Positions 16,143 to 32,873 of a stretch of DNA of 32,873 nucleotides are shown here, in pieces. Under the pieces are notes generated by a model, which saw only the letters and a list, made by a program, of their open reading frames with translations, had not been told where the DNA came from and made no database searches. A program made the translations under genes and the position numbers. Each line of letters begins with the position of its first letter. Positions within the stretch are counted from its first letter, which is position 1. Location of the stretch: sequence record SRR22947727_3747; one strand, 5' to 3'.

Positions 16143-17339
16143 ATGACCGATTTTGCGAAGACCCGACAGATGTTCGATATTCCACCCGGTGTGATCTATC
16201 TCAACGGAAATTCCCTTGGACCTATGCCAAAAGCGGCTCCCAATGCGATCAACAGCTTTTTAATGGATGAATGGCGCACGGAATTGGTCCGGGGCTGGAA
16301 CACGAAAAACTGGTTCATGCAGAGCAATACGCTCGGTGATAGGTTAGGGCGTTTGATCGGTGCCCCTGCGGGCAGTACCGTGGTCGGAGACACACTCTCG
16401 ATAAGGGTCTTCCAAGCGGTCGCCGCGGCGCTCGCCTTGGCCCCCAAGCGCCGTGTGATCCTGTCAGACAGCGGCAACTTCCCCACAGATCTTTACATGG
16501 TTGAAGGGCTCATGGGTTTGCGTGATGTGGGCTACGAACTGCGCACCCCTGCACCTGAGGATGTTTTGGATCACATCACCGAAGAGGTGGCCACCGTCAT
16601 GGTCACAGAGGTTGATTACCGCAGCGGCCGCAAACATGACATGCAGGCCATTATCAAAAAAGCACACAGCGTTGGGGCAACGGTGGTTTGGGACTTGGCC
16701 CATTCCATCGGTGCTATTCCTGTTGATATGTATGGCACAAATGCCGATTTTGCAGTCGGATGCACCTATAAATTCCTAAATTCTGGCCCCGGCGGGCCGG
16801 CGTTTATCTATGTCGCTCCCCGCTTGATTGATCAGGTGGAGCCCGTGCTCTCAGGCTGGTTTGCACATGAGGCACCTTTTGCTTTTGATCTCAACTTCCG
16901 TCCGATGCCAGGAAAAATTGATCGCATGCGGATCGGCACCCCTTCAATTGCGGCCTTCTCTTTGCTTGGGGCCGCGTTGGATATTTGGGATGGGGTAGAT
17001 ATGTTGGATTTGCGCGCCCGGTCAATTGAGCTTTCAGAAGCGCTGATTTCCGGTGTTGAAGCCAAATGCCCCGGCTTAACCCTCGCCAGCCCCCGCGATC
17101 CCGAGCAGCGCGGTAGCCATGTGGCTTTCAAGTTTGAACATGGCTATGCCTGTATGCAAGCTCTGATTGCGCAAGGGGTCATCGGAGATTTTAGAGCGCC
17201 TAATATAATGCGCTTTGGCATCACACCCTTATTCACCAGCTTGGAAGATATCACCCAAGCAGTTGATATTTTGGCCAATATATTAACTGAAAAAACTTGG
17301 CAGAACCCAGAATTTCAAAGTAAAGCCTTGGTGACCTAA
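16143..17339 (+). CDS. kynU: Kynureninase
   Basis: YLNGNSLG, NFPTDLY, WDLAHS, VGCTYK (PLP Lys), RGSH, GDFRAP. Confidence 0.88.
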   Translation: MTDFAKTRQMFDIPPGVIYLNGNSLGPMPKAAPNAINSFLMDEWRTELVRGWNTKNWFMQSNTLGDRLGRLIGAPAGSTVVGDTLSIRVFQAVAAALALAPKRRVILSDSGNFPTDLYMVEGLMGLRDVGYELRTPAPEDVLDHITEEVATVMVTEVDYRSGRKHDMQAIIKKAHSVGATVVWDLAHSIGAIPVDMYGTNADFAVGCTYKFLNSGPGGPAFIYVAPRLIDQVEPVLSGWFAHEAPFAFDLNFRPMPGKIDRMRIGTPSIAAFSLLGAALDIWDGVDMLDLRARSIELSEALISGVEAKCPGLTLASPRDPEQRGSHVAFKFEHGYACMQALIAQGVIGDFRAPNIMRFGITPLFTSLEDITQAVDILANILTEKTWQNPEFQSKALVT

Positions 17340-17405
17340 AGCGGCCGGGCGCAGCGGTCGCTTGTTTTGGCCCAATTGGCCCCTCATAGTTTATTGGAAG
17401 CACGA

Positions 17406-17436
17406 AAACCTCTTTCAGTTGAAATGAAAGAGGTTT
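17406..17436. terminator. Perfect 12-bp inverted repeat, probable (bidirectional) terminator after kynU
   Basis: AAACCTCTTTCA-GTTGAAA-TGAAAGAGGTTT. Confidence 0.6.
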
Positions 17437-17793
17437 CCAGAGCTTGGAATAGCAAGCCACGCGGTGTTCGGCTTGGGTTTGGTGGCAGAACTAAGTGACC
17501 GCTACAGTGATCTCGTTACCCCAGGTTCTAGACTAACTAATAGCGGATAATTTTCCTCCTGCATGTAAAATTCCCGATTTTCGGGACTCGACCTCAGGCG
17601 GGCAAATTATGGCCGCACAATGGGTCAAATTCACCTTAGTAGGCGTTTATTATGTGGAATAAAAATATGCTATAAACTTAATCTTTTTTGTTATTTTGTA
17701 TGATGAAAATTTAATCGTCTGATTTTATTGATTCGCAATTTTCACTTTATGATCACATTTGGACCCACTGAAAATTTCAAAGCTGGAGCCACT

Positions 17794-17866
17794 ATATCAG
17801 ATATTATCTTATATAAATGAGATAATAGGCTTCATATATATGGTAGTTAAATTTTTATCAGATATT
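17794..17866. promoter_or_regulatory. AT-rich operator cluster upstream of the GntR regulator
   Basis: TATCAGATATT at 17795 and 17856 (first copy within the palindrome ATATCAGATAT); TATTATCT-N10-AGATAATA at 17802-17827. Confidence 0.5.
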
Positions 17867-17932
17867 CTGTTATGTTGAGGAACTCCCTGAAAATGTGTAT
17901 GATTATTTTATAAGCGAAGCAGGGTAGCGCAA

Positions 17933-18586
17933 ATGACGAGTGCCGCGACAACGGTCGGATCTTCGGTTTATTTGAAGATTAAATCCGACATTATCACCGG
18001 CGCTCTAACGCCGGGGAAAAAGCTGAAATTAGACGCCTTAAAAGTGCAGTACTCAGCCAGTGTTTCAACCTTAAGGGAAACACTTAACCGGCTGGCTAGT
18101 GATGGTTTTGTGGACGCGCCCGAGCAACGCGGTTTTTTGGTTCGTACAATGTCCAACGAGGACCTGATTGAGCTGTCCAATCTCCGCGTATTACTGCAAT
18201 GTGCTGCTCTCAAAGCCTCCTTGGCTTTTGGTGATGAAAATTGGGAGGGCAATCTGGTCTCTGCCCACCACAAATTGGCCATGACTGGCAAGAAAATTAT
18301 GGCCGGCGAGGACGTTTCTCTAGAACGCCAACTGCACTATGATTGGGAGTTTCATTTTGCCTTGGTGCGGGCCTGCAACTCTCGGCACATGATCGCAGTC
18401 TTCCAAAATATTTACGAAAAACACATTGGCTACCAACTGGTGCTGCGCAATTATCGCTGGGCAAAAGCCCTTGAAGAACAGCACCTGATTTTTGAAGCCG
18501 CACTCGCGCGTGACGCCGAGGCGGCAACAGAACATTTGAAATCCCATTTGCGTAAAAGCCTTTCTTTCTCCCTCGCAGCCAATTAA
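17933..18586 (+). CDS. GntR/FCD-family transcriptional regulator
   Basis: wHTH LTPGKKL..SVSTLRETLNRL..QRGFLV; FCD domain DWEFHFALV. Confidence 0.92.
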   Translation: MTSAATTVGSSVYLKIKSDIITGALTPGKKLKLDALKVQYSASVSTLRETLNRLASDGFVDAPEQRGFLVRTMSNEDLIELSNLRVLLQCAALKASLAFGDENWEGNLVSAHHKLAMTGKKIMAGEDVSLERQLHYDWEFHFALVRACNSRHMIAVFQNIYEKHIGYQLVLRNYRWAKALEEQHLIFEAALARDAEAATEHLKSHLRKSLSFSLAAN

Positions 18587-23125: not shown

Positions 23126-23150
23126 GTCAAACCGCATAATGCGTTTTGAC
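23126..23150. promoter_or_regulatory. 12-1-12 inverted repeat, putative operator in a divergent intergenic region
   Basis: GTCAAACCGCAT-A-ATGCGTTTTGAC, one mismatch. Confidence 0.5.
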
Positions 23151-23218
23151 AGGTCAGCACGTCGCCTGTAAGGCAACGATCCAGTCAGATACCTCTGACC
23201 AGCCATAAGGAATGCCCC

Positions 23219-23833
23219 TTGAGCCGTACAAACGCCCCCCGCTATCAAGCTGAAAATGGCTACCTCACACAGACCACCCGAAAATCCTACATAAAGCGAG
23301 CTGTAGAAGCCAGGCTTTTGCCCCCACGTGCGCGGCGCATGGAACAGATCACCTCACTGCAGGCGTCACAGGATCCGCAGATGCCCATCCAGTTTTGGCA
23401 GCTCTTTTCCGTTTTGGGGCCAGAGCCCATTGTCGGGATTGTTGCTGATTTTTATCAACGCGTGTTTGACGACGAGCCATGGTTCACATCGGTTTTCGCG
23501 CGGGTCGGCAACCTCAATCACCATATTTCAACGCAGGCCAGCATGTGGCTCGATGTCATGGGCGGCGGGCCTTATTACCACGGGGCAGAATTCAGGTTGA
23601 ATTTCCATCACACCCACAATGCCCATAGTTTGATGAATGAAGAAGGTGCGCGCCGCTGGGTCACACTCATGGTCGCTTCGCTAGAGGCCTCAAAGCCGTT
23701 AATGGGCGATGATCCTCGGGTGCGGGCGAGCCTCAACACGTTTCTCGCGCATTTCTTCGCAAAATATGCGCGGGATTTTCAGTTTGAAAACTGTGAAACA
23801 TTCGGGCCGATTAACCCGCCGGTCCTCCAATAA
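23219..23833 (+). CDS. Truncated (2/2) globin-like protein with N-terminal extension
   Basis: LG..IV..FY.RV..D...F...H......MGGG.YY.G....H pattern of truncated haemoglobins; TTG start after AAGGA. Confidence 0.6.
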   Translation: MSRTNAPRYQAENGYLTQTTRKSYIKRAVEARLLPPRARRMEQITSLQASQDPQMPIQFWQLFSVLGPEPIVGIVADFYQRVFDDEPWFTSVFARVGNLNHHISTQASMWLDVMGGGPYYHGAEFRLNFHHTHNAHSLMNEEGARRWVTLMVASLEASKPLMGDDPRVRASLNTFLAHFFAKYARDFQFENCETFGPINPPVLQ

Positions 23834-23859: not shown

Positions 23860-24816
23860 TTAAATGCGGTCAAAATCGAGCGAGTCGGCGACGATATCAA
23901 CCCGATCTTGCAAAGTATTGGGAAAGAGGCGGGCATAGCGTTCGGTCATAGAGATATTGTAATGCCCCAGCAATTGCTGAACCTCATAAATACTTGCGCC
24001 ATTGTTAATCAAAAGGCTGGCATAGGTGTGGCACAAGTCATGCATCCGAACGGAGCTCAGGCCCGCGCTGTCTCGAGCCTTAAAAAACGCAATATGCAAG
24101 CTGGTGTAGGGTTGGCCCGTGCGGGGGTTGGCGAACACCCAGCTGTCCCGGGTGATCGGCAGGCCCAGAGCCTCAGACCGCAATTTCACCTGCTCCAGAA
24201 CCGCCAGGGCTTTTTTGCTCAAAACCACTGTACGGCTGCGGCCACTTTTACTGACGGCAACAAAAAGCTCGCCCTTTTGCAAATCAATACAGGTCCATTT
24301 GGCCAGGCGCAGTTCGCTCTTTCGTGCCCCGGTGAGCAAGAGCAATTTGACAAATAAATGCAAGAACGGATGCGTGCTGCGCTTACAAGCGCTCAGCAGA
24401 CTTTTGATCTCCGTATGGGTTAAGAAGCGCTGCATATAATCGCCTGTTGGCAATTTCTTGATGACGACAGCTTTAAATGGGTTTGTATCGAGATAACCCC
24501 ATTGCACGGCAATGTTTAGAATTCTGTTCAACATGCTGGAATGCTTGTTCACCGTCGCAGGCTTGTAGCCCGCCTCCAATTGCGCCGTCATCCATAGGTC
24601 GAGATCCTGGCTGGTAATCTCCGCCAGGGTTTTTGGCCCAAAGATTGGCCTAATGTGTTTGTCGAACACATAGAGCTCCAATTGGCTCCGACGCTTGGTC
24701 GCCTTAGAGAACGCATAGTATTTATGATCGAAGAAATCTGCGAAACAGGAGAATTCTTGGAGACTGTTAGACGAATTGAAATCGGTTGTTTTAAAAATAT
24801 TTGAAAAAATAGACAT
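23860..24816 (-). CDS. Tyrosine recombinase (SAM-like core-binding + catalytic domain), HxxR Arg replaced by Cys
   Basis: PATVNK, TGARKSE (Arg I), SKSG (Lys), HDLCH (canonical HDLRH), LGH, TERY (Tyr); GAGGAGG RBS before ATG 24816. Confidence 0.93.
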   Translation of the reverse strand: MSIFSNIFKTTDFNSSNSLQEFSCFADFFDHKYYAFSKATKRRSQLELYVFDKHIRPIFGPKTLAEITSQDLDLWMTAQLEAGYKPATVNKHSSMLNRILNIAVQWGYLDTNPFKAVVIKKLPTGDYMQRFLTHTEIKSLLSACKRSTHPFLHLFVKLLLLTGARKSELRLAKWTCIDLQKGELFVAVSKSGRSRTVVLSKKALAVLEQVKLRSEALGLPITRDSWVFANPRTGQPYTSLHIAFFKARDSAGLSSVRMHDLCHTYASLLINNGASIYEVQQLLGHYNISMTERYARLFPNTLQDRVDIVADSLDFDRI

Positions 24817-24907
24817 ACTGAGGCCCTCCTCGAGCGCCTTGATACTGACAAACAACACTATTTGGAACTGATTCGTCTAAAAAGCAGTACCAATGGCTAA
24901 CTTTAGC

Positions 24908-25962
24908 ATGAAAGCATTCTCCTTACTTCTAGTGCTCTGGTGATGACCGCTGGTGTTGCCGCTGCAGAAGTTACCTTCTCAGGCACAGCAAAATTTGGTT
25001 ACAACGACACAGATCACGCAACTGGCGCATCTGTTGGCGCTGCTTTTTCGGACATTGATCTGAACATCGCATTTTCACAAGAGCTGAACAACGGCTACAC
25101 AGCCGCCGCTTCTTTTGAGTTTGACGTTGCCAATGCGGACCAAGGCGCGAGTTTCAATGCCTCTGATGCTGTGATCTCTTTGACAAATGCTGATTCCGGC
25201 ATCCACTATGGTGACACGAAACATGGCGCTGAAAACGCATGGTCTGCGGTTGGCTCCACGGATAACGACGACTTCCGTGTCGCAAAAAACGAAATGGTGA
25301 CCCGTGCTGACATGACCTTTGGCGGCGCAAAAATCGGCATCTCTTTGGGCGATGATACAAACATCTCCGGTACTGAAAAAGATTACATTTCACTCGGCAT
25401 CACAGGCTCTGCTGGCGCATTCTCCTATGCACTGGCCCATCAAAACGAAAACACCGCTACGCTGGACCCTGTTGACAAATTAGCAGCGACGCAACTCGCA
25501 ACAACCGGTGTTCGTGTGAGCACAACTTTGGGTGGCGCAACTGTTGCACTGGGTTATGCCAAAAACGACAATGGCGGTTCAACCGGCATTGAAGTCAGCT
25601 ACCCAATGGGCGCACTCACCACAACAGCATCTTACGTTCAAGAAGGCGCAGCTAGCGCAGAAAACAAATGGGATGTGAAAGTTGCCTATGCCGAAGGCGC
25701 ATTGGGTGTGACAGTTGCTACAGACGAAAGTCAGGACTGGAATGTTGACGTGTCCTACGACATGGGTAACGGCATGAACCTCTTCGTCGGTGCTGATGAC
25801 GGTGGCAAAGACACATATGCTGGTGTGAGCTATGATCTCGGCGGCGGTGCATCGCTCTTGGCATCCTACGCAAATGACAGCGACAACGATGATACTGACG
25901 ACGAAGTTGGTGCAAAAGACTACAAAGAAGGCATGACCTTCCAGCTTTCTTTCGCATTCTAA
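24908..25962 (+). pseudogene. Porin 1 (Rhodobacter-type general porin) with intact body but disabled 5' end (silent cassette or frameshifted gene)
   Basis: Signal peptide SILLTSSALVMTAGVAAA-E in the frame of 24913, but ATG 24908 is 1 nt out of frame and an in-frame TAG lies at 24904; beta-strand pattern, YDLGGGAS, C-terminal FAF. Confidence 0.85.
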
Positions 25963-25985
25963 GTCGATTGAAATCGAACCTTGAG

Positions 25986-26012
25986 AAGGCGGCCCGAAAG
26001 GGTCGCCTTTTT
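25986..26012 (+). terminator. Intrinsic terminator of porin 1
   Basis: AAGGCGGCCC-GAAA-GGGTCGCCTT followed by TTT. Confidence 0.9.
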
Positions 26013-26141
26013 CATTTTTGGATGATGATTTTTCGGCATGGATCCCTTGGAGCTCTGGAAACCTGAGCCAAAGCAGCCTATGACTGGCGGCGGGCGCCTA
26101 ATCTGGGTTTGGCCCATGAATATATAGACGAGGCAGATCTC

Positions 26142-28700
26142 ATGAGCAGCTATTCCCCCGCCGAAATCGAAGCCAAATGGCAAGAGGCATGGGCCAAAGG
26201 CGAGACCTTCAAGGCCGTGGCCACTGCCGATCGTCCGAAATATTATGTCCTGGAAATGTTCCCCTATCCATCGGGCCGCATTCACATGGGCCATGTCCGC
26301 AATTACACCATGGGCGATGTGATCGCGCGTTATAAGCTGTCTACCGGGCATAATGTTCTACACCCGATGGGCTGGGACGCCTTTGGCATGCCGGCCGAAA
26401 ACGCCGCGATGGCGATCGGTGGGCATCCAAAAGAATGGACCTATGACAACATCGCAACCATGCGCACACAGATGAAGCCCTTGGGCCTGTCCATCGATTG
26501 GTCGCGCGAGTTTGCCACCTGTGACCCTGAATATTACGGACAACAACAGGCGTTGTTTCTCGATATGCTTGCCAATGGTTTGGTCTATCGCAAGAATGCG
26601 ATGGTCAATTGGGATCCAGTCGATATGACGGTTCTGGCCAATGAGCAGGTGATTGACGGCAAAGGCTGGCGTTCCAATGCCGAGGTGGAACGCCGCGAGT
26701 TAACACAATGGTTCTTCAATATCTCATCGATGTCGGGCGAATTGCTCAGCGCCTTGGATGGGCTGGAAAACTGGCCTGCCAAAGTTCGGTTGATGCAGGA
26801 AAATTGGATCGGCCAATCGCGGGGGTTGGAAATGACCTTCCCGCTGACGACACCCCAAGATGGTCATGAGGGCATCACCGTTTACACCACCCGCCCCGAT
26901 ACATTGGTGGGCGCCTCATTCATTGGACTGGCCGCGAACCACCCACTGACCCAAAGCCTGGCAGCTCAAAACCCTGCCTTGGCGGAATTCTGTGCCGAAT
27001 GTAAGAAAATGGACACAACAGAAGCCGCTATGGAAAAGGCTGAAAAGAAGGGCTTTGATACCGGCATCACCGTGCAAAATCCGCTTGGCGGCGCGCCATT
27101 GCCTGTTTGGGTCGCCAATTTTGTGATGATGGATTACGGCACCGGCGCAATCTTCGCCTGCCCCGCCCATGACCAGCGCGACCTTGATTTTGCGCGGAAA
27201 TATGATCTGCCCGTGATTGATACCTTCTTTGCGCTCAACGATGATACACCCGTGACAGATGTGGCTTTCGTGCCGGCCAAAACGGAAACGGTGCGCTGGG
27301 TCAACCAACCGGCCGGCCTGCAAGAGGCCACGGGGCAAGAGGCGGTTGACGCCACCATCGATTGGGCCGAAGCGCAGGGGCTTGGCATCGGCAAAACGCA
27401 ATATCGTTTGCGCGATTGGGGATTGAGCCGACAACGCTATTGGGGGTGTCCGATTCCGGTGGTGCATTGTGACAGCTGCGGCGTTGTGCCGGAGAAAAAG
27501 GAAAACCTGCCAGTCCGCCTGCCTGATGATGTGACGTTTGACATTCCGGGGAACCCGTTGGATCGGCACCCCACTTGGCGCAACTGCGCCTGCCCCGCCT
27601 GCGGCAAGGCCGCCCGCCGCGAGACCGATACCATGGATACTTTCGTGGATTCCTCTTGGTATTATGCGCGCTTCACGGCCCCCAATGCCGCCACACCTAC
27701 GGATATGGCGGAGGCCAGCTATTGGATGAACGTCGATCAATATATTGGCGGCGTGGAACATGCGATTTTGCACCTGCTCTATTCGCGGTTCTTTGCCCGC
27801 GCCATGCAGATCTGTGGCCATTTGCCCCCTTCCGCGATTGAACCTTTTGACGCGCTTTTTACCCAGGGCATGGTCACCCATGCGATCTATAAATCAGAGG
27901 GCAAAGACGGCCGGCCTGTCTATCACTACCCCGAAGAGGTGGCACTCCGGGATGGAAAGGCTTTCTTGCTTGATGGCGGCGCTGAGGTCACCATTGTGCC
28001 GTCCGCAAAGATGTCGAAATCAAAAAATAACGTGGTGGATCCGATCAGCATCATCAGCAGCTACGGAGCCGATACGGCGCGGTGGTTTGTTCTGTCTGAC
28101 AGTCCGCCAGAGCGCGATGTGGAGTGGACCGCTTCTGGTGCGGAAGCGGCGTTTAAGCATTTGAACCGCGTCTGGCAACTTTGCGATAAAATTGCCAATA
28201 TGGACAAAAATCAATCTGGCGAGGGGGATAAGGATCTCCTGCGCGCGCTCCACAAAACCATTGTGGACGTCACATCGGGGGTGGAGAGTTTTGGCTTCAA
28301 TGCAGCAATTGCCAAGCTCTATGGTTTCACCGCAACATTAGCCAAATCCAAGGCCGGATATGCCGCGCAGCATGAGGCAATCAGGACCTTGGCGCAATTG
28401 ATGGCACCGATGACGCCGCATTTGGCAGAGGACATTTGGGCGCATCAAGGCGGGCAGGGGCTTATTGCCAATGCGCCTTGGCCGAAAGCAGATCCGGAGC
28501 TCTTGATCGAAGATGAGGTCACTTTGCCCATCCAAATCAACGGCAAACGCCGTGATGAGATCACTGTGGCCAAAGATATGAGCAAAGAAGAGCTGGAAGC
28601 CTTGGTGTTGCAGAATAACGCTGTGATGAAAGCGCTTGATGGTGCTACACCTAAGAAACTTGTCATTGTACCCGGACGTATCGTCAATGTGGTTATCTAG
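26142..28700 (+). CDS. leuS: Leucine--tRNA ligase
   Basis: [41 protein letters not shown]. Confidence 0.99.
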
Positions 28701-29157
28701 CCGACGCGGATTTCTAAGTGCAGCTCTTGCTCTGGCGGGCTGTGGGCTTACTCCTGTCATGGAGCCCAGCTCGCAGCAGCTTTACAATCAGGTCCTGATC
28801 CAAGCCCCGGTCAATCGGGCGGAATATGAGCTGGTGCGGAACTTAGAAGCGCAGCTTGGAGTCGCAAAAAGCGCGCGTTTTGCGTTGCATTATGAATTGA
28901 ACGTCACAGAGGACAATATCGTTGTCTCCGCCGCCCAAGAGATCAGCCGCTATAGCCTTGTCGGCGAGCTGGAGTATTCCTTGCGGGACAACAATGGCGC
29001 CATCCTAACCCACCAGAGTGCAAAATCATTCACCGGCTACTCCGCCACAGGCACCACCGTCGCCACCCAGCGGGCTCAGCGAGACGCCCATGACCGCTTA
29101 ATGGTCATTCTGGCAGACCAAGTCTCCACGGCGCTGCTGACACTGGACCTCCCATGA
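28687..29157 (+). CDS. lptE: LPS assembly lipoprotein LptE
   Basis: MWLSSRR..LAG-C lipobox; position between leuS and holA. Confidence 0.85.
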
Positions 29158-30179
29158 AGCTCTCCGCCCGCGACGCAGCGGCGGTTTTTGCGAAGCCCGA
29201 TCCCAACAAAACGGGGGTGTTGATCTATGGCGCCAATGCGATGCGTGTGGCGCTGAGGCGACAGCAATTGATCAAGGGGCTGATCGGCCCGCAGGGCGAA
29301 GAGGAAATGCGCCTCACGCGCCTGCAGGGCGGTGAGTTGCGACGCGACGGGGCCGCGCTGAATGATGCCATCAAAGCGGTTGGGTTTTTCCCCGGCCCGC
29401 GCGTGGTTCTCGTGGAAGACGCCAATGACAATTGCGCCGATGCAATCCTGGCGGGATTGGCCGATTGGCAGGCCGGTGATGCGCAGATGGTTGTCATTGG
29501 CGGCGCTCTAAAGCCGACATCAAAAATCCGCAAAGCTTTTGAAGCCCATCCCAATGCCTGGTCTATCGCCATTTTTGATGAACCGCCCACCCGCGCCGAA
29601 GTGGAGGCCGCTTTGGCAAAAGTCGGCATGGGCGCGGTCGACGCTGAGGCCAGCGCGGCCATTACAGATCTTTCCAAGGCCATAGATCCCGGTGATTTCA
29701 GTCAATTCTTGGAAAAATTGTCTTTATATTGCATGTCTCAAGCCGGACCAGTCACCCTAAGAGATGTTGAGATCTGCGCGCCGCAATCCACCGAAGCGGC
29801 GCTCGATGATGTCATTGGGTTGGTGGCCGATTTGAAAACAAATGAGATTGCCCCAGTGTTGCACCGCGTGATCGCTCAGGGCGGAACCGCCACCGGGCTT
29901 TGCATTGCCGCTTTGCGCCATTTTCGCCTTCTCCACGCCGCAGCCTCTGATCCAGCAGGCGCGCAGCAAGGTGTGGCAAAGCTTCGGCCGCCGGTTTACG
30001 GGCCACGTCGAGATCGGATCCAACGGCAGGTCGGCGCTTGGCGTCGAGACCGGCTGGAACAGGTGATTTCGCTTTTGCTAGACACTGATTTGCAGCTACG
30101 ATCTGCGGGGCAAACCGCGCCGCAAATGGCACAGGTTGAGAGATGTTTCATCCGAATTTCAATGATGGGGAAAAGATAA
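29154..30179 (+). CDS. holA: DNA polymerase III delta subunit
   Basis: LIYG, GFFPGPRVV, LEKLSLY, LRPPVYGPR; leuS-lptE-holA synteny. Confidence 0.93.
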   Translation: MKLSARDAAAVFAKPDPNKTGVLIYGANAMRVALRRQQLIKGLIGPQGEEEMRLTRLQGGELRRDGAALNDAIKAVGFFPGPRVVLVEDANDNCADAILAGLADWQAGDAQMVVIGGALKPTSKIRKAFEAHPNAWSIAIFDEPPTRAEVEAALAKVGMGAVDAEASAAITDLSKAIDPGDFSQFLEKLSLYCMSQAGPVTLRDVEICAPQSTEAALDDVIGLVADLKTNEIAPVLHRVIAQGGTATGLCIAALRHFRLLHAAASDPAGAQQGVAKLRPPVYGPRRDRIQRQVGAWRRDRLEQVISLLLDTDLQLRSAGQTAPQMAQVERCFIRISMMGKR

Positions 30180-30767
30180 ATGTATACGGTATTGGGTTCG
30201 ACCAAAAATCGAACTTTGCGAGTGATTTGGACGCTTGAGGAATTGGGCTTGCCCTATGATCAGGTCAAAGGCGACCCTGGCTCAGCAGAGGCCAAGGCGC
30301 ACAACCCCAGTGGTAAAGTGCCGGCCTTGGTGGTCGATGGAGAGGTTCTACCTGATAGCGTTGCGATCATGAGTTTTTTATCTGACCGTCACAATGCCCT
30401 AACCTTTCCAGCCGGATCTGTCGAACGGTTGCGCATGGATGGGCATATTCATTTCCTGCTCGAAGAATTCGACAGCCTACTCTGGGTTTCGGCGAAAAAC
30501 TCTTTTGTTAATCCGCCTGAGCACCGTGCCGCCGAAGTGAAGCCCGTGTTGAAATGGGAGTTTGAACGCAGTTTAAAGCGGCTTGAAGCCCGGCTTCAGG
30601 GCGCGTTCCTCATGGGCGAGCAGTTTACAATCGCCGACATTTTGGCAGTGCATTGCCTCAATTGGGCCTATACGGCGAAATTCCCAGACGCCAGCCCTGT
30701 TTTAAAGGACTATGCCAAACGCTGCCGAGCGCGTCCGGCCTATGTAAGGGCTTTAGCGGAAAGATAA
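30180..30767 (+). CDS. Glutathione S-transferase family protein
   Basis: RTLRVIWTLEELG, NPSGKVP, DSVAI, FTIADI. Confidence 0.92.
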   Translation: MYTVLGSTKNRTLRVIWTLEELGLPYDQVKGDPGSAEAKAHNPSGKVPALVVDGEVLPDSVAIMSFLSDRHNALTFPAGSVERLRMDGHIHFLLEEFDSLLWVSAKNSFVNPPEHRAAEVKPVLKWEFERSLKRLEARLQGAFLMGEQFTIADILAVHCLNWAYTAKFPDASPVLKDYAKRCRARPAYVRALAER

Positions 30768-31963
30768 TCAGCGGCCGCGCGGCCAGCCCAACGGCCGGTC
30801 GCGAGGCAGGCGGTGATCAAATAACCGCCCGTCGGTGCGTCCCAATCTAGCATCTCACCGGCGCAAAATACGCCCGGGAAATCCCGAAGCATCAACTCGG
30901 GTGTCAATGCGTCCCATGACAGCCCACCAGCTGTTGAGATGGCCTCATCTATAGGGCGCGGTCCCGAGACCTGCAGCGGCGCAGCTTTGATTGCAGCAAT
31001 AAGCCCATCGGTATCGCGGGGCATAGGGCGGGTCAGCTCAAACAGCAGGGCTCGTTTTGTGGCATCCAGTTTGACGGATTTTCGCAAGAAATTGCTCAGA
31101 CTGTCCTTGGGCTTGCGATTTGAAATCATGTCCCTCAAGGCGTGGATCGAAAGCTGTGGCGCCAAATCAATCCGGGCCAAAGGGGTCTGCCGCAGCATCC
31201 GCCCCAGCGCATAGATTGCCCCACCTTCCACACCGGATTGTGTGATCACAAATTCACCACGGCTTCGCTGATCTGCGACGGTAAGCTCGATATTCTTTAC
31301 GGGTTGGCCAAAAAACGGGCGCATATGATCCGACCAAGCGCGCTGCAGTCCCACATTTGACGCTTGAATAGGGACAATCGGCACGCCCGCCGCCGCGACT
31401 GGCGTTTGCCAAGCGCCATCAGACCCTAAACGCGCCCAACTCGCGCCACCGAGCGCGAGGATCAACGCCCCGGCCGTCACGGCGACCTGGCCCTTTGGCG
31501 TGGCCAGCAGATGCGGCGCATCTGTGGTCAATGGACCGATCCATCGGTGGCGGCGCAGCAATACAACACCCAGCGCATCGAGCCGCGCCAGCCACGCCCG
31601 CAGAAGGGGAGACGCTTTCATGCGCGTCGGAAAAACCCGGCCTGTGCTGCCTGTGAAGACCTCCTGCCCAAGGCCTTGCGCAAAGCCGATGACCTCAGCC
31701 GGCCCAAATTGCGCTAGAATGGGCTTCAAGGGGGCGATGGTGTCAAAATGCTGCAAGAACGTGTTGGGCTCTTCTGCCTTGGTTAGGTTGAGACCAGATT
31801 TTCCAGCCATGAGAAATTTTCGTGCAGGGGAGGGCATCGCCTCAGCTATTGCCACACGCATCCCAGCCCGCGCGGCTTGCTCTGCCGCCATCAGCCCGGC
31901 TGGGCCCGCGCCCACAACCAATAGGTCAAACACATTTTGAGACTGGGCTTGGGCGTGATCCAT
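30740..31963 (-). CDS. NAD(P)/FAD-dependent oxidoreductase (HI0933/BaiN-like flavoprotein)
   Basis: GAGPAG, RKFLMAGKSGLNLT, GRVFP, EAISTAGG, GEMLDWDAPTGGY. Confidence 0.92.
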   Translation of the reverse strand: MDHAQAQSQNVFDLLVVGAGPAGLMAAEQAARAGMRVAIAEAMPSPARKFLMAGKSGLNLTKAEEPNTFLQHFDTIAPLKPILAQFGPAEVIGFAQGLGQEVFTGSTGRVFPTRMKASPLLRAWLARLDALGVVLLRRHRWIGPLTTDAPHLLATPKGQVAVTAGALILALGGASWARLGSDGAWQTPVAAAGVPIVPIQASNVGLQRAWSDHMRPFFGQPVKNIELTVADQRSRGEFVITQSGVEGGAIYALGRMLRQTPLARIDLAPQLSIHALRDMISNRKPKDSLSNFLRKSVKLDATKRALLFELTRPMPRDTDGLIAAIKAAPLQVSGPRPIDEAISTAGGLSWDALTPELMLRDFPGVFCAGEMLDWDAPTGGYLITACLATGRWAGRAAADYLSAKALT

Positions 31964-32142: not shown

Positions 32143-32165
32143 TCTTTAACCGAAGTTGGTTTCGC

Positions 32166-32873
32166 TTAGAATGCGAAGTTCAGACCAACAGTTGTCAGGT
32201 CGTCGGCTGTACCAGCTTTGTCGTGTATTGCTGCGAAAGCAGATGCGCCGCCACCGAGTGCGAAATCAGCAATGATTGTAGTCGCGTCTGTTTCGTCAAG
32301 AGCGAAAGATGCAACCAATGCGCCCGCTGTGTATTTAACAGAAGCGTCCCACTCGTCACCGAAAGTACCGGCAGAACCTGGCTTGATTGTTGTGTAACCA
32401 ACAGTCAAAGCGTCCATTGCGTATGAGAAACCAACTGATGAATCGTCTTCAGCGTCGTTTGACTCGTCGGACATAGCAGCGCTCACAGTCAAATCACCCA
32501 TTGCGTAAGATGCAGAGATGCCAGTAGCGCTACCGCCAGCGTCGTCGTTGTTTGTGCCAGTGAATGTGAGTGCTACGCCAGCAATGTTGCCGCCGACTTT
32601 GTAAGAGCTTGTAGAACCTTCTTGATCGGATGTCATTGCGACACTCCAACCAGCAATGGAGCCAGCGATTCTTACGTCTTGTGCGCCATCAGTGTCATCA
32701 AACAAGTTGTCGATGCCAGCTTGGTCTACAGTCAATGTCCAGCCGTTGTATGAAACTGCAACGTCTGCGTCACCGACGGTGTTGCCTTGTGCTTCAAGCA
32801 CATCGTCATCGTTATAGTCGATTTTGCTACCAGCGCCCATCACCAAGTTGGCAAATGCTGGCATCAACGTGCG
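32166..32873 (-). CDS. Porin 2 (Rhodobacter-type porin), 5' part outside the window
   Basis: Amphipathic beta-strands, repeated SYAM strands, FALGGGAS, C-terminal FAF; ORF open to the window edge. Confidence 0.88.
   Translation of the reverse strand, partial: RTLMPAFANLVMGAGSKIDYNDDDVLEAQGNTVGDADVAVSYNGWTLTVDQAGIDNLFDDTDGAQDVRIAGSIAGWSVAMTSDQEGSTSSYKVGGNIAGVALTFTGTNNDDAGGSATGISASYAMGDLTVSAAMSDESNDAEDDSSVGFSYAMDALTVGYTTIKPGSAGTFGDEWDASVKYTAGALVASFALDETDATTIIADFALGGGASAFAAIHDKAGTADDLTTVGLNFAF

Follow-up and report, generated by a model that had tools for sequence, protein, structure and literature searches.

A startless porin body beside a tyrosine recombinase gene in a marine Rhodobacteraceae lineage: probable silent half of a two-porin inversion arrangement

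In the vpma/Xer1, vsp/Mbr and vsa/HvsR systems of Mycoplasma, a tyrosine recombinase gene lies beside a family of surface-protein genes, one site bears a promoter and silent genes are activated by inversion at a short 5' site; in vsa, a silent gene contributes its 3' part, to which promoter, ribosome-binding site (RBS) and 5' coding part become attached (PMC2268961). An adjacent recombinase, a single expression site and a silent copy without a start, the features shared with the Mycoplasma systems, are also found in the stretch of DNA analysed here, 32,873 nucleotides (nt) from sequence record SRR22947727_3747, which as a whole is called the window. The recombinase gene, int, is divergent from a porin gene body, porin 1, while the leader of a second porin, porin 2, is placed beside yggS beyond the right end of the window. 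Porin 1 is probably the displaced resident porin, the silent half of a recombinase-made arrangement of two porin bodies and one start, and translatable only after the reverse inversion.

In Campylobacter fetus, the promoter of sapA resides on an invertible segment between opposed surface-protein genes with a conserved 5' block, with RecA and long 5' homology at work, and in Bacteroides fragilis the Tsr tyrosine recombinases swap the promoter-proximal 5' ends of genes for SusC/SusD-type outer-membrane proteins. The tyrosine integrases of phage 21 and e14 in icd, and of SXT in prfC, enter a gene end, whereby the element brings a replacement part and the product is still made.

The porin 1 start and the adjacent recombinase gene

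Porin 1 begins with a start remnant (24908..24943, plus strand), in which ATG (24908-24910) and AAA (24911-24913) are followed by GCA. As the preliminary description had stated, the frame of this ATG ends after 11 codons: the ATG and 10 out-of-frame codons (MKAFSLLLVLW) run into a TGA (24941-24943) that overlaps the ATG at 24943. The remnant is one base out of frame with the Porin_4 body, which is without an in-frame start codon followed by an N-terminal Sec signal peptide. The frame of the body itself is closed upstream by TAG 24904-24906, likewise as described before, and reads HESILLTSSALVMTAGVAAAEV from 24907 (HESILLTSSALVMTAGVAAAEV). Its earliest ATG, GTG or TTG is GTG 24940, then ATG 24943, and a start at either codon would indeed cost most of the signal peptide, leaving MMTAGVAAA, 9 residues ahead of the likely cleavage site between AAA and EV. 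A purine-rich RBS was not found upstream of the remnant (..AATGGCTAACTTTAGC ATG), again in agreement with the earlier observation, and a sigma-70 consensus scan of 24600-26150 detected no plus-strand promoter-like site ahead of porin 1.

The body (24913..25962, plus strand) consists of the signal-peptide remainder (24913-24966), the predicted cleavage site and a mature Porin_4 barrel up to ..LSFAF and the stop codon. From GTG 24940 onwards 340 codons are open to TAA 25960-25962, and the product matches Pfam Porin_4 (PF13609) with E 3.8e-20 and 73.4 bits (cut-off 27) over residues 2-317. Its C-terminus, ..TFQLSFAF, is the aromatic end typical of outer-membrane beta-barrels and is invariant in 31 sequences. 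The gene is followed by an intrinsic terminator (25983..26012, plus strand) of 13 pairs, seven of them G-C, and a T run. The open body and the strong terminator of the preliminary description are thus both present, and so is the distinct codon style: GCT and GCA make up 75% of the alanine codons in porin 1 compared to 14-34% in neighbouring genes, and the GC content at third codon positions is 0.49 in porin 1 and 0.47 in porin 2, which have their codon usage in common, compared to 0.56-0.63 in neighbouring genes.

Since a single base would restore the frame, the joint could be read as an assembly or homopolymer error, the true sequence being one base longer and porin 1 an ordinary expressed gene. 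Nothing else speaks in favour of an error, and its probability is close to nil. Genome G001, the nearest to the window (97% identical over 4 kb) and used as a stand-in for the window's genome, carries the identical joint, ATGAAAGCATTCTCC, as does the independent genome G018 (93%). A metagenome scan with the porin as query retrieved 47 loci, 38 of which extend to the joint; 37 of these read TTTAGCATGAAAGC directly followed by ATTCTCC, and the remaining one, L065, represents a 108-bp deletion form found in genome G003, too. Contigs of runs X13, X1 and X14 span the joint with no insertion or deletion (indel) listed at 24911-24915, so that the run of A at 24911-24913, where a homopolymer error had been considered, reads the same in the contigs of three runs and in independent genomes as in the window. 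Above all, leader and RBS are absent as well, for which no one-base error accounts. On these grounds the error reading is refuted. The comparison of runs is based on the assembled contigs of four runs and is uninformative on minority inversions, because contigs drop rare variants; among the rows listed for these contigs, with 55 further loose ends outside them, no strand-changing joint or loose end occurs at ~24910. Contigs of the RNA run cover the whole stretch evenly, which as contigs cannot show transcription, strand or start.

What is missing becomes apparent by comparison with the leader-linked porins of the window's genus, which have a leader and RBS (..TTTGGAATGCAACNCGAGGGAA..) in common, located shortly ahead of ATG AAA CGC ATY CTY CTT AC (MKRILLT), at a distance of a few bases, with ATG AAA CGC (MKR) in nine of nine starts read. 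The likeness of porin 1 to the genus leader (..GCAACNCGAGGGAA..ATGAAACGC) begins only at CATGAAA, one base short, and the sequence upstream is unrelated; consequently, the entire promoter, leader and RBS are gone and not just a single base. The earlier statement that the gene is one A short therefore stands in that one added base restores a normal start, but A and the C of CGC are equally good readings. Judged from the aligned starts, the missing base could be this C, or an A as in the ATG AAA AGC (MKS) of two out of eight starts in another genus. The sole stretch in common with the expression-site start, CATGAAACGCATCCTCCTTAC, is CATGAAA-GCATTCTCCTTAC (24907..24926, plus strand), one base shorter, and this is the probable crossover site. 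The two porin 5' sites, in inverted orientation, have 20-21 nt in common, interrupted by a single indel and a single mismatch; a repeat finder applied to 15 kb of G001 with a seed of 10 did not report them, as no exact match between them reaches the seed length. The spacer between the divergent genes (24817..24906), the recombinase-side arm of the joint, holds neither porin leader nor RBS, bears no resemblance to the genus-wide leader and is nearly invariant in 37 metagenome loci.

On the other side of this spacer, int (23860..24816, minus strand) encodes a Xer-like tyrosine recombinase of 318 amino acids (aa). Its ATG at 24816, with a GGAGG-type RBS just upstream, is 91 nt away from the ATG remnant of porin 1, and a recombinase gene hence adjoins the variable genes. 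The protein matches Pfam Phage_integrase (PF00589; E 3.2e-31, 108.9 bits) and has relatives in PDB in XerA, XerD and HP1 integrase. It is under the cut-off of all 10 listed NCBIfam models for Xer, integron-integrase and FimB/E-type invertases (best 98.6 bits versus 220; integron-integrase models 49.8 bits versus a cut-off of 265), and no homologue with more than 34% identity was found in phage records, plasmid records and IMG/VR contigs. The gene is constrained, with a ratio of nonsynonymous to synonymous divergence (dN/dS) of 0.05 against G018 at a dS of 0.47. As side observations, the contig of run X13 is one base short in the A6 run at 24799-24804, 12 nt into int, which would frameshift that strain's recombinase near its start, and one contig of the RNA run X14 skips 577 nt (23141-23719) and has 14 other letters instead, by which most of the globin-like gene beside int is removed.

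Block inversion and recombinase-porin pairs in other genera

The gene order of related genomes relates the joint to a larger rearrangement. In the outgroups G011 and G013, ribA, LDT and yggS are followed, divergently from yggS, by a porin gene and then by leuS, lptE, holA, GST and FAD. In the window, G001, G003, G018 and G021, yggS is divergent from porin 2, behind which FAD, GST, holA, lptE and leuS follow in reversed order, and then the divergent pair of porin 1 and int, the globin-like gene and SDR. The leuS, lptE, holA, GST-like and FAD-protein genes (26109..31963) are the core of a block of ~8.2 kb, reaching from the porin body to FAD, that is inverted with respect to the outgroups, with a second porin body now behind the yggS-side leader. 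It is porin 1 that the resident porin of the outgroups resembles (38% and 31% identity), and porin 2 gives no match. The two porin 5' ends are ~8.2 kb apart, and reversing the inversion would recreate the outgroup order leuS-porin-yggS with porin 1 expressed. Block inversion and leader comparison together bear out the former proposal that the 5' end of porin 1 is a crossover region; it is not a random lesion. With its two sites in inverted orientation the window locus is not a simple insertion; it could have arisen by insertion beside FAD and subsequent inversion, or by integration and then a second inversion. Among the open reading frames of at least 120 aa beside FAD in G011 and G013, only one has a weak match in the window (30% identity). 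The outgroups also possess a small lipoprotein gene (~147 aa) between porin and leuS, where the window clade has only ~150 nt (window 25962-26109 compared to L010 2689-3129).

Porin 2 is present in the window with its 3' part (32166..32873, minus strand). As the expressed partner it would have leader, RBS and ATG ~0.2 kb past the window end beside yggS, as deduced from G001, which contains two Porin_4 genes in total and has its single leader motif linked to porin 2. Thus, of the two copies only one occupies an expression site that provides promoter and start. Porin 2 is hypervariable, with 74% protein identity between window and G001 where flanking genes have 99-100%, and 39% between G003 and G001. 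The contigs of three out of four runs depart from the window at 32147-32171, and three out of four at 32838-32840. G001, G003 and G021 agree in the first 60 nt of the porin 2 coding sequence, from which G012 deviates by one change.

The mechanism we propose starts from a recombinase lineage which across Rhodobacteraceae sits beside porin genes and would recombine them inside the first few codons, with the site of exchange in the window around 24907-24926. In the clade ancestor, the exchange would have taken place between the leuS-linked resident porin, now porin 1, and an incoming startless porin, now porin 2, and would have inverted the ~8.2-kb block porin1-leuS-lptE-holA-GST-FAD-porin2. From then on porin 2 would be driven by the sole porin promoter, leader, RBS and ATG, which lie beside yggS past the right window end, and porin 1 would be left on the recombinase-side arm with no RBS and a start remnant one base out of frame. 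A reverse inversion would rejoin porin 1 to the yggS-side start and restore leuS-porin-yggS; as the sole promoter and start are beside yggS, porin 1 can be exported only if this happens. We infer that the recombinase made the window joint and that reversal still happens in the window's genus.

A survey of 401 Rhodobacteraceae genomes, one per genus, at E <= 1e-45 identified an int homologue in 16 of them, with 33-77% identity outside the window's genus. Of 16 loci from other genera, 14 have a porin gene next to the homologue, often with yggS, leuS or tRNA-Lys alongside, and eight of the int-linked porins, from seven genera (G206, G231, G049, G239, G338, G069 and, twice, G412), are without leader, ATG and the first one to four codons and yet open over 291-388 aa. 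A scan of genome contigs with narrow peptide patterns gave matches in the window's genus only.

Both orientations are seen in G338 and G453, which belong to one genus other than the window's and are ~82% identical at the locus. Two outward-facing porin bodies, 90% and 91% identical between the two genomes, are kept in place, and the int-holA-lptE-leuS-leader segment between them is in opposite orientation. In G338 it is the yggS-side body that has the leader and ATG, with the int-side arm attached to its counterpart, and in G453 the two are exchanged. Polymorphisms place the crossover within ~17 nt in codons 2-7. The idea of the preliminary description that the porin becomes translatable only after recombination supplies promoter, RBS and start consequently finds its counterpart in a related genus, where inversion does just this, whereas for the copy in the window itself switching on is not borne out, as discussed below.

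Insertion forms occur as well. In G206, the 5' end of the resident porin is interrupted by a stretch of ~5.5 kb in direct orientation, which comprises int, a further small integrase, a DUF6626 gene and a porin body; the ends of this stretch are identical over at least 66 nt from codon 4, and eight sister species have leuS-porin-yggS with an empty site. The porins of the sister species are closer to the displaced copy (45-47% in G439, G440 and G442) than to the imported one (34%). Relative to G457, the startless porin and int of G239, in which int follows the startless porin, are a 2.25-kb insertion. A second int-porin pair in G003 forms a 3.6-kb island (L085, G003:C2, 8613-12206) 57 nt past tRNA-Lys, made up of a porin-2-type cassette without a start (..ACACCG joined to AAACGCATCC..) and a recombinase paralogue of low GC content (59% identity); at the same position the site is empty in G012, occupied by a decayed porin fragment (aa 112-307) in G021 and by ~3.4 kb of different sequence in G001. 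A simple 257-kb inversion as the origin of the island cassette was rejected, because the expressed body adjoins FAD in G003 just as it does in G001; G003 is better explained by a replacement of the allele at the expression site. Further cargo of int-porin loci comprises a 200-aa Phage_integrase-domain protein and the DUF6626 protein in G206 (L120 10800-14200), and a serine resolvase and a 490-aa protein without Pfam match in G233 (L128 6911-10002).

According to three comparisons (G338/G453, G206 and G239/G457), the module both inserts and inverts, and in every state compared one porin body has a start and the other is startless, mostly directly beside the recombinase. The insertions in G206, G239 and G003 point to a mobile element of two genes, spreading through takeover of the host promoter. 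Tentatively, we extend this to a general scheme, in which mobile porin-swap modules of a tyrosine recombinase and a startless porin might recombine in the signal-peptide codons of the host's main porin, capture promoter, RBS and ATG, park the resident porin intact beside the recombinase and then act as a reversible two-porin inversion switch. The window would represent the state with the incoming porin on and the resident porin off.

Constraint, decay and the state of the switch

Whether porin 1 is still of use to its carriers can be approached through its variation in the 31 copies with a length that is a multiple of three. Their 369 variable sites are distributed over the codon positions as 118/83/168, with an excess at third positions, and among at least 442 mutations one nonsense change is observed where 11.7 are expected if mutations are random (P about 1e-4). 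The copies differ by seven distinct gap runs of 3 to 36 nt, each with a length divisible by three. The variation is mosaic, with few variable segments, and the other segments as well as the C-terminus are nearly invariant. Selection for maintenance of the gene, as previously suggested, is thereby borne out at the protein level. Also in favour of our explanation, loss of int goes along with a porin 1 that is truncated (G021, G017), deleted (G012) or, by a 108-bp deletion, provided with an in-frame TTG (G003). The comparison of dN/dS with orthologues weighs on the other side, as set out below.

The same data argue against porin 1 being a frozen relic of an inversion that happened once, functionless since and in slow decay, with a constraint that is residual or derives from allele exchange between strains. 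Besides the nonsense, third-position and gap patterns, dS of 0.17 and dN of 0.085 relative to G018 are far under the neighbours' dS of 0.40-0.55, a leader-linked porin-1-type donor was not found among the 47 metagenome loci, and the startless cassettes of seven other genera are open and full length. We regard a relic as unlikely, even though part of the evidence points to it.

This evidence is best presented together with everything else that weighs against the displaced, recoverable porin we favour. A porin-1-type body joined to the leader was seen in none of the 38 metagenome loci and none of the six genomes of the genus, all 44 copies being in one, silent state, as a relic would have it. 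Equally in favour of decay, 12 of the 36 assessable metagenome copies are broken and 24 open; five of the broken copies share one TCG>TAG change, and seven have other frameshifts or stops, some of them in low-coverage contigs. The recombinase gene itself matches as two pieces in ~8 of the 22 metagenome loci that fully cover it, and the truncated or deleted porin 1 of G021, G017 and G012 also counts for a relic. Pairwise dN/dS of porin 1 amounts to 0.46-0.96, compared to 0.02-0.19 in the neighbouring genes with the exception of the globin gene (0.73, from a comparison with seven substitutions); for window versus G001 it is 0.96, with a dN about equal to the neighbours' dS. The indel and the mismatch fall within only ~20 nt shared by the two sites, a difference that may block strand exchange. 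The contrast between G338 and G453 is one between species and not switching within a culture, and their recombinases are 44% identical to that of the window.

A last point against an active switch concerns codon 262 of int (24031..24033, minus strand), which in the window is TGC (Cys), giving HDLCHT instead of HDLRHT. The window is alone in this, every other copy read (G001, metagenome loci and other genera) having HDLRHT, and the A of the window at 24033 is read as G, restoring the Arg codon, in the contigs of all four runs. The change, R262C, which also speaks for a relic, can be an inactivating mutation specific to this strain or else a wrong base in the assembly. It affects the Arg of the H-x-x-R box, which we take to be catalytic in tyrosine recombinases, and provided that the base is not an assembly error, the enzyme of the window strain is probably dead. 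Because of Cys at this position and of a one-base difference in length between the sites, a locked switch is probable for the sequenced strain and possible for the whole clade. For the earlier claim of translation after recombination this means that the uniform silent state, the broken copies, the int matches in two pieces and Cys262 all speak against the switching on of this particular copy.

Protein-level constraint in a gene that is always in its present state, together with a joint that is nearly invariant among strains, could alternatively be explained by translation in place from an odd start, that is at ATT 24916, by a -1 slip after ATG AAA or by re-initiation at TGATG 24941-24945. In G003 and L065 the 108-bp deletion, which in G003 removes the start of int, even sets a TTG in frame directly before AGC ATT. 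Opposed to this are the upstream region with neither RBS nor plus-strand promoter-like site, the absence of an X XXY YYZ slippery heptamer for programmed -1 frameshifting from 24908-24943, as read from the sequence, and the mere 9 residues that GTG 24940 or ATG 24943 keep ahead of the cleavage site. Moreover, in startless cassettes of other genera (inspected by eye in G206, G338 and partly G231) the stretch from the upstream stop to the remainder of the signal peptide contains none of the codons ATG, GTG and TTG, so that the pattern of the family is silence and not odd initiation. An odd start is accordingly judged improbable, and a displaced resident porin awaiting the reverse inversion remains the explanation we prefer.

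Surface variation in marine bacteria and comparison with known systems

Gram-negative cells take up nutrients mainly through porins, which are also common receptors of phages. As G001 has only two Porin_4 genes, one expressed and one silent, the choice between them sets the main porin of the cell. The window stretch is found in public marine metagenome and metatranscriptome runs of 14 studies. If the proposed reading is true, the module alters the phage-visible cell surface in some of the most abundant coastal bacteria, and the swapping of whole porins behind one start brings surface variation, documented mainly in host-associated bacteria, to free-living marine plankton. It would also account for intact-looking porin 'pseudogenes' beside integrases, which bears on annotation and on hypervariable regions in metagenomes. 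Apart from the locus discussed, the window has a region of low GC content at 17000-18500 (0.43 compared to about 0.55 around it).

With the sapA locus of C. fetus, the layouts of G338/G453 and of G239 agree, whereas the sapA inversion is not known to depend on a dedicated adjacent tyrosine recombinase and the promoter of the window lies outside the invertible block. The Tsr systems of B. fragilis differ from the porin system in protein family, acting on TonB-dependent transporters, in phylum and in recombinase lineage. The insertion in G206 is like those of phage 21, e14 and SXT in its gene-end target and in the empty sites of eight sister species; unlike them, it hits the extreme 5' end, the replacement is a whole different porin body that takes the host promoter, and the displaced body stays intact beside the integrase. 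Integrons are similar in that a tyrosine recombinase gene is divergent from a site that receives promoterless cassettes, but here the cassette is without a start codon and not without a promoter alone, the promoter is away from the recombinase and the integrase models score far under their cut-off; attC or attI was not identified at the window, with no search aimed at them.

From the Mycoplasma systems the porin arrangement departs in several respects. The proteins are beta-barrel porins and the bearer is a free-living marine alphaproteobacterium, in contrast to the lipoproteins of a host-bound mollicute, the cassettes number two instead of six or more, and the site is in the first signal-peptide codons. 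The inverted block carries the essential genes leuS, lptE and holA, and the modules exist as small mobile insertions, too. Also, a switched copy was not found in the window's genus, opposite states being known only between the species G338 and G453. In full-text searches of the literature, no description of recombinase-linked silent porins in Rhodobacteraceae was found; what is reported in this respect is the deletion of a porin within a metagenomic island (PMC12379486). What is new with respect to the described systems is the protein class and the habitat, the position of the site in the first signal-peptide codons, the presence of essential genes on the invertible block and the two-gene mobile form.

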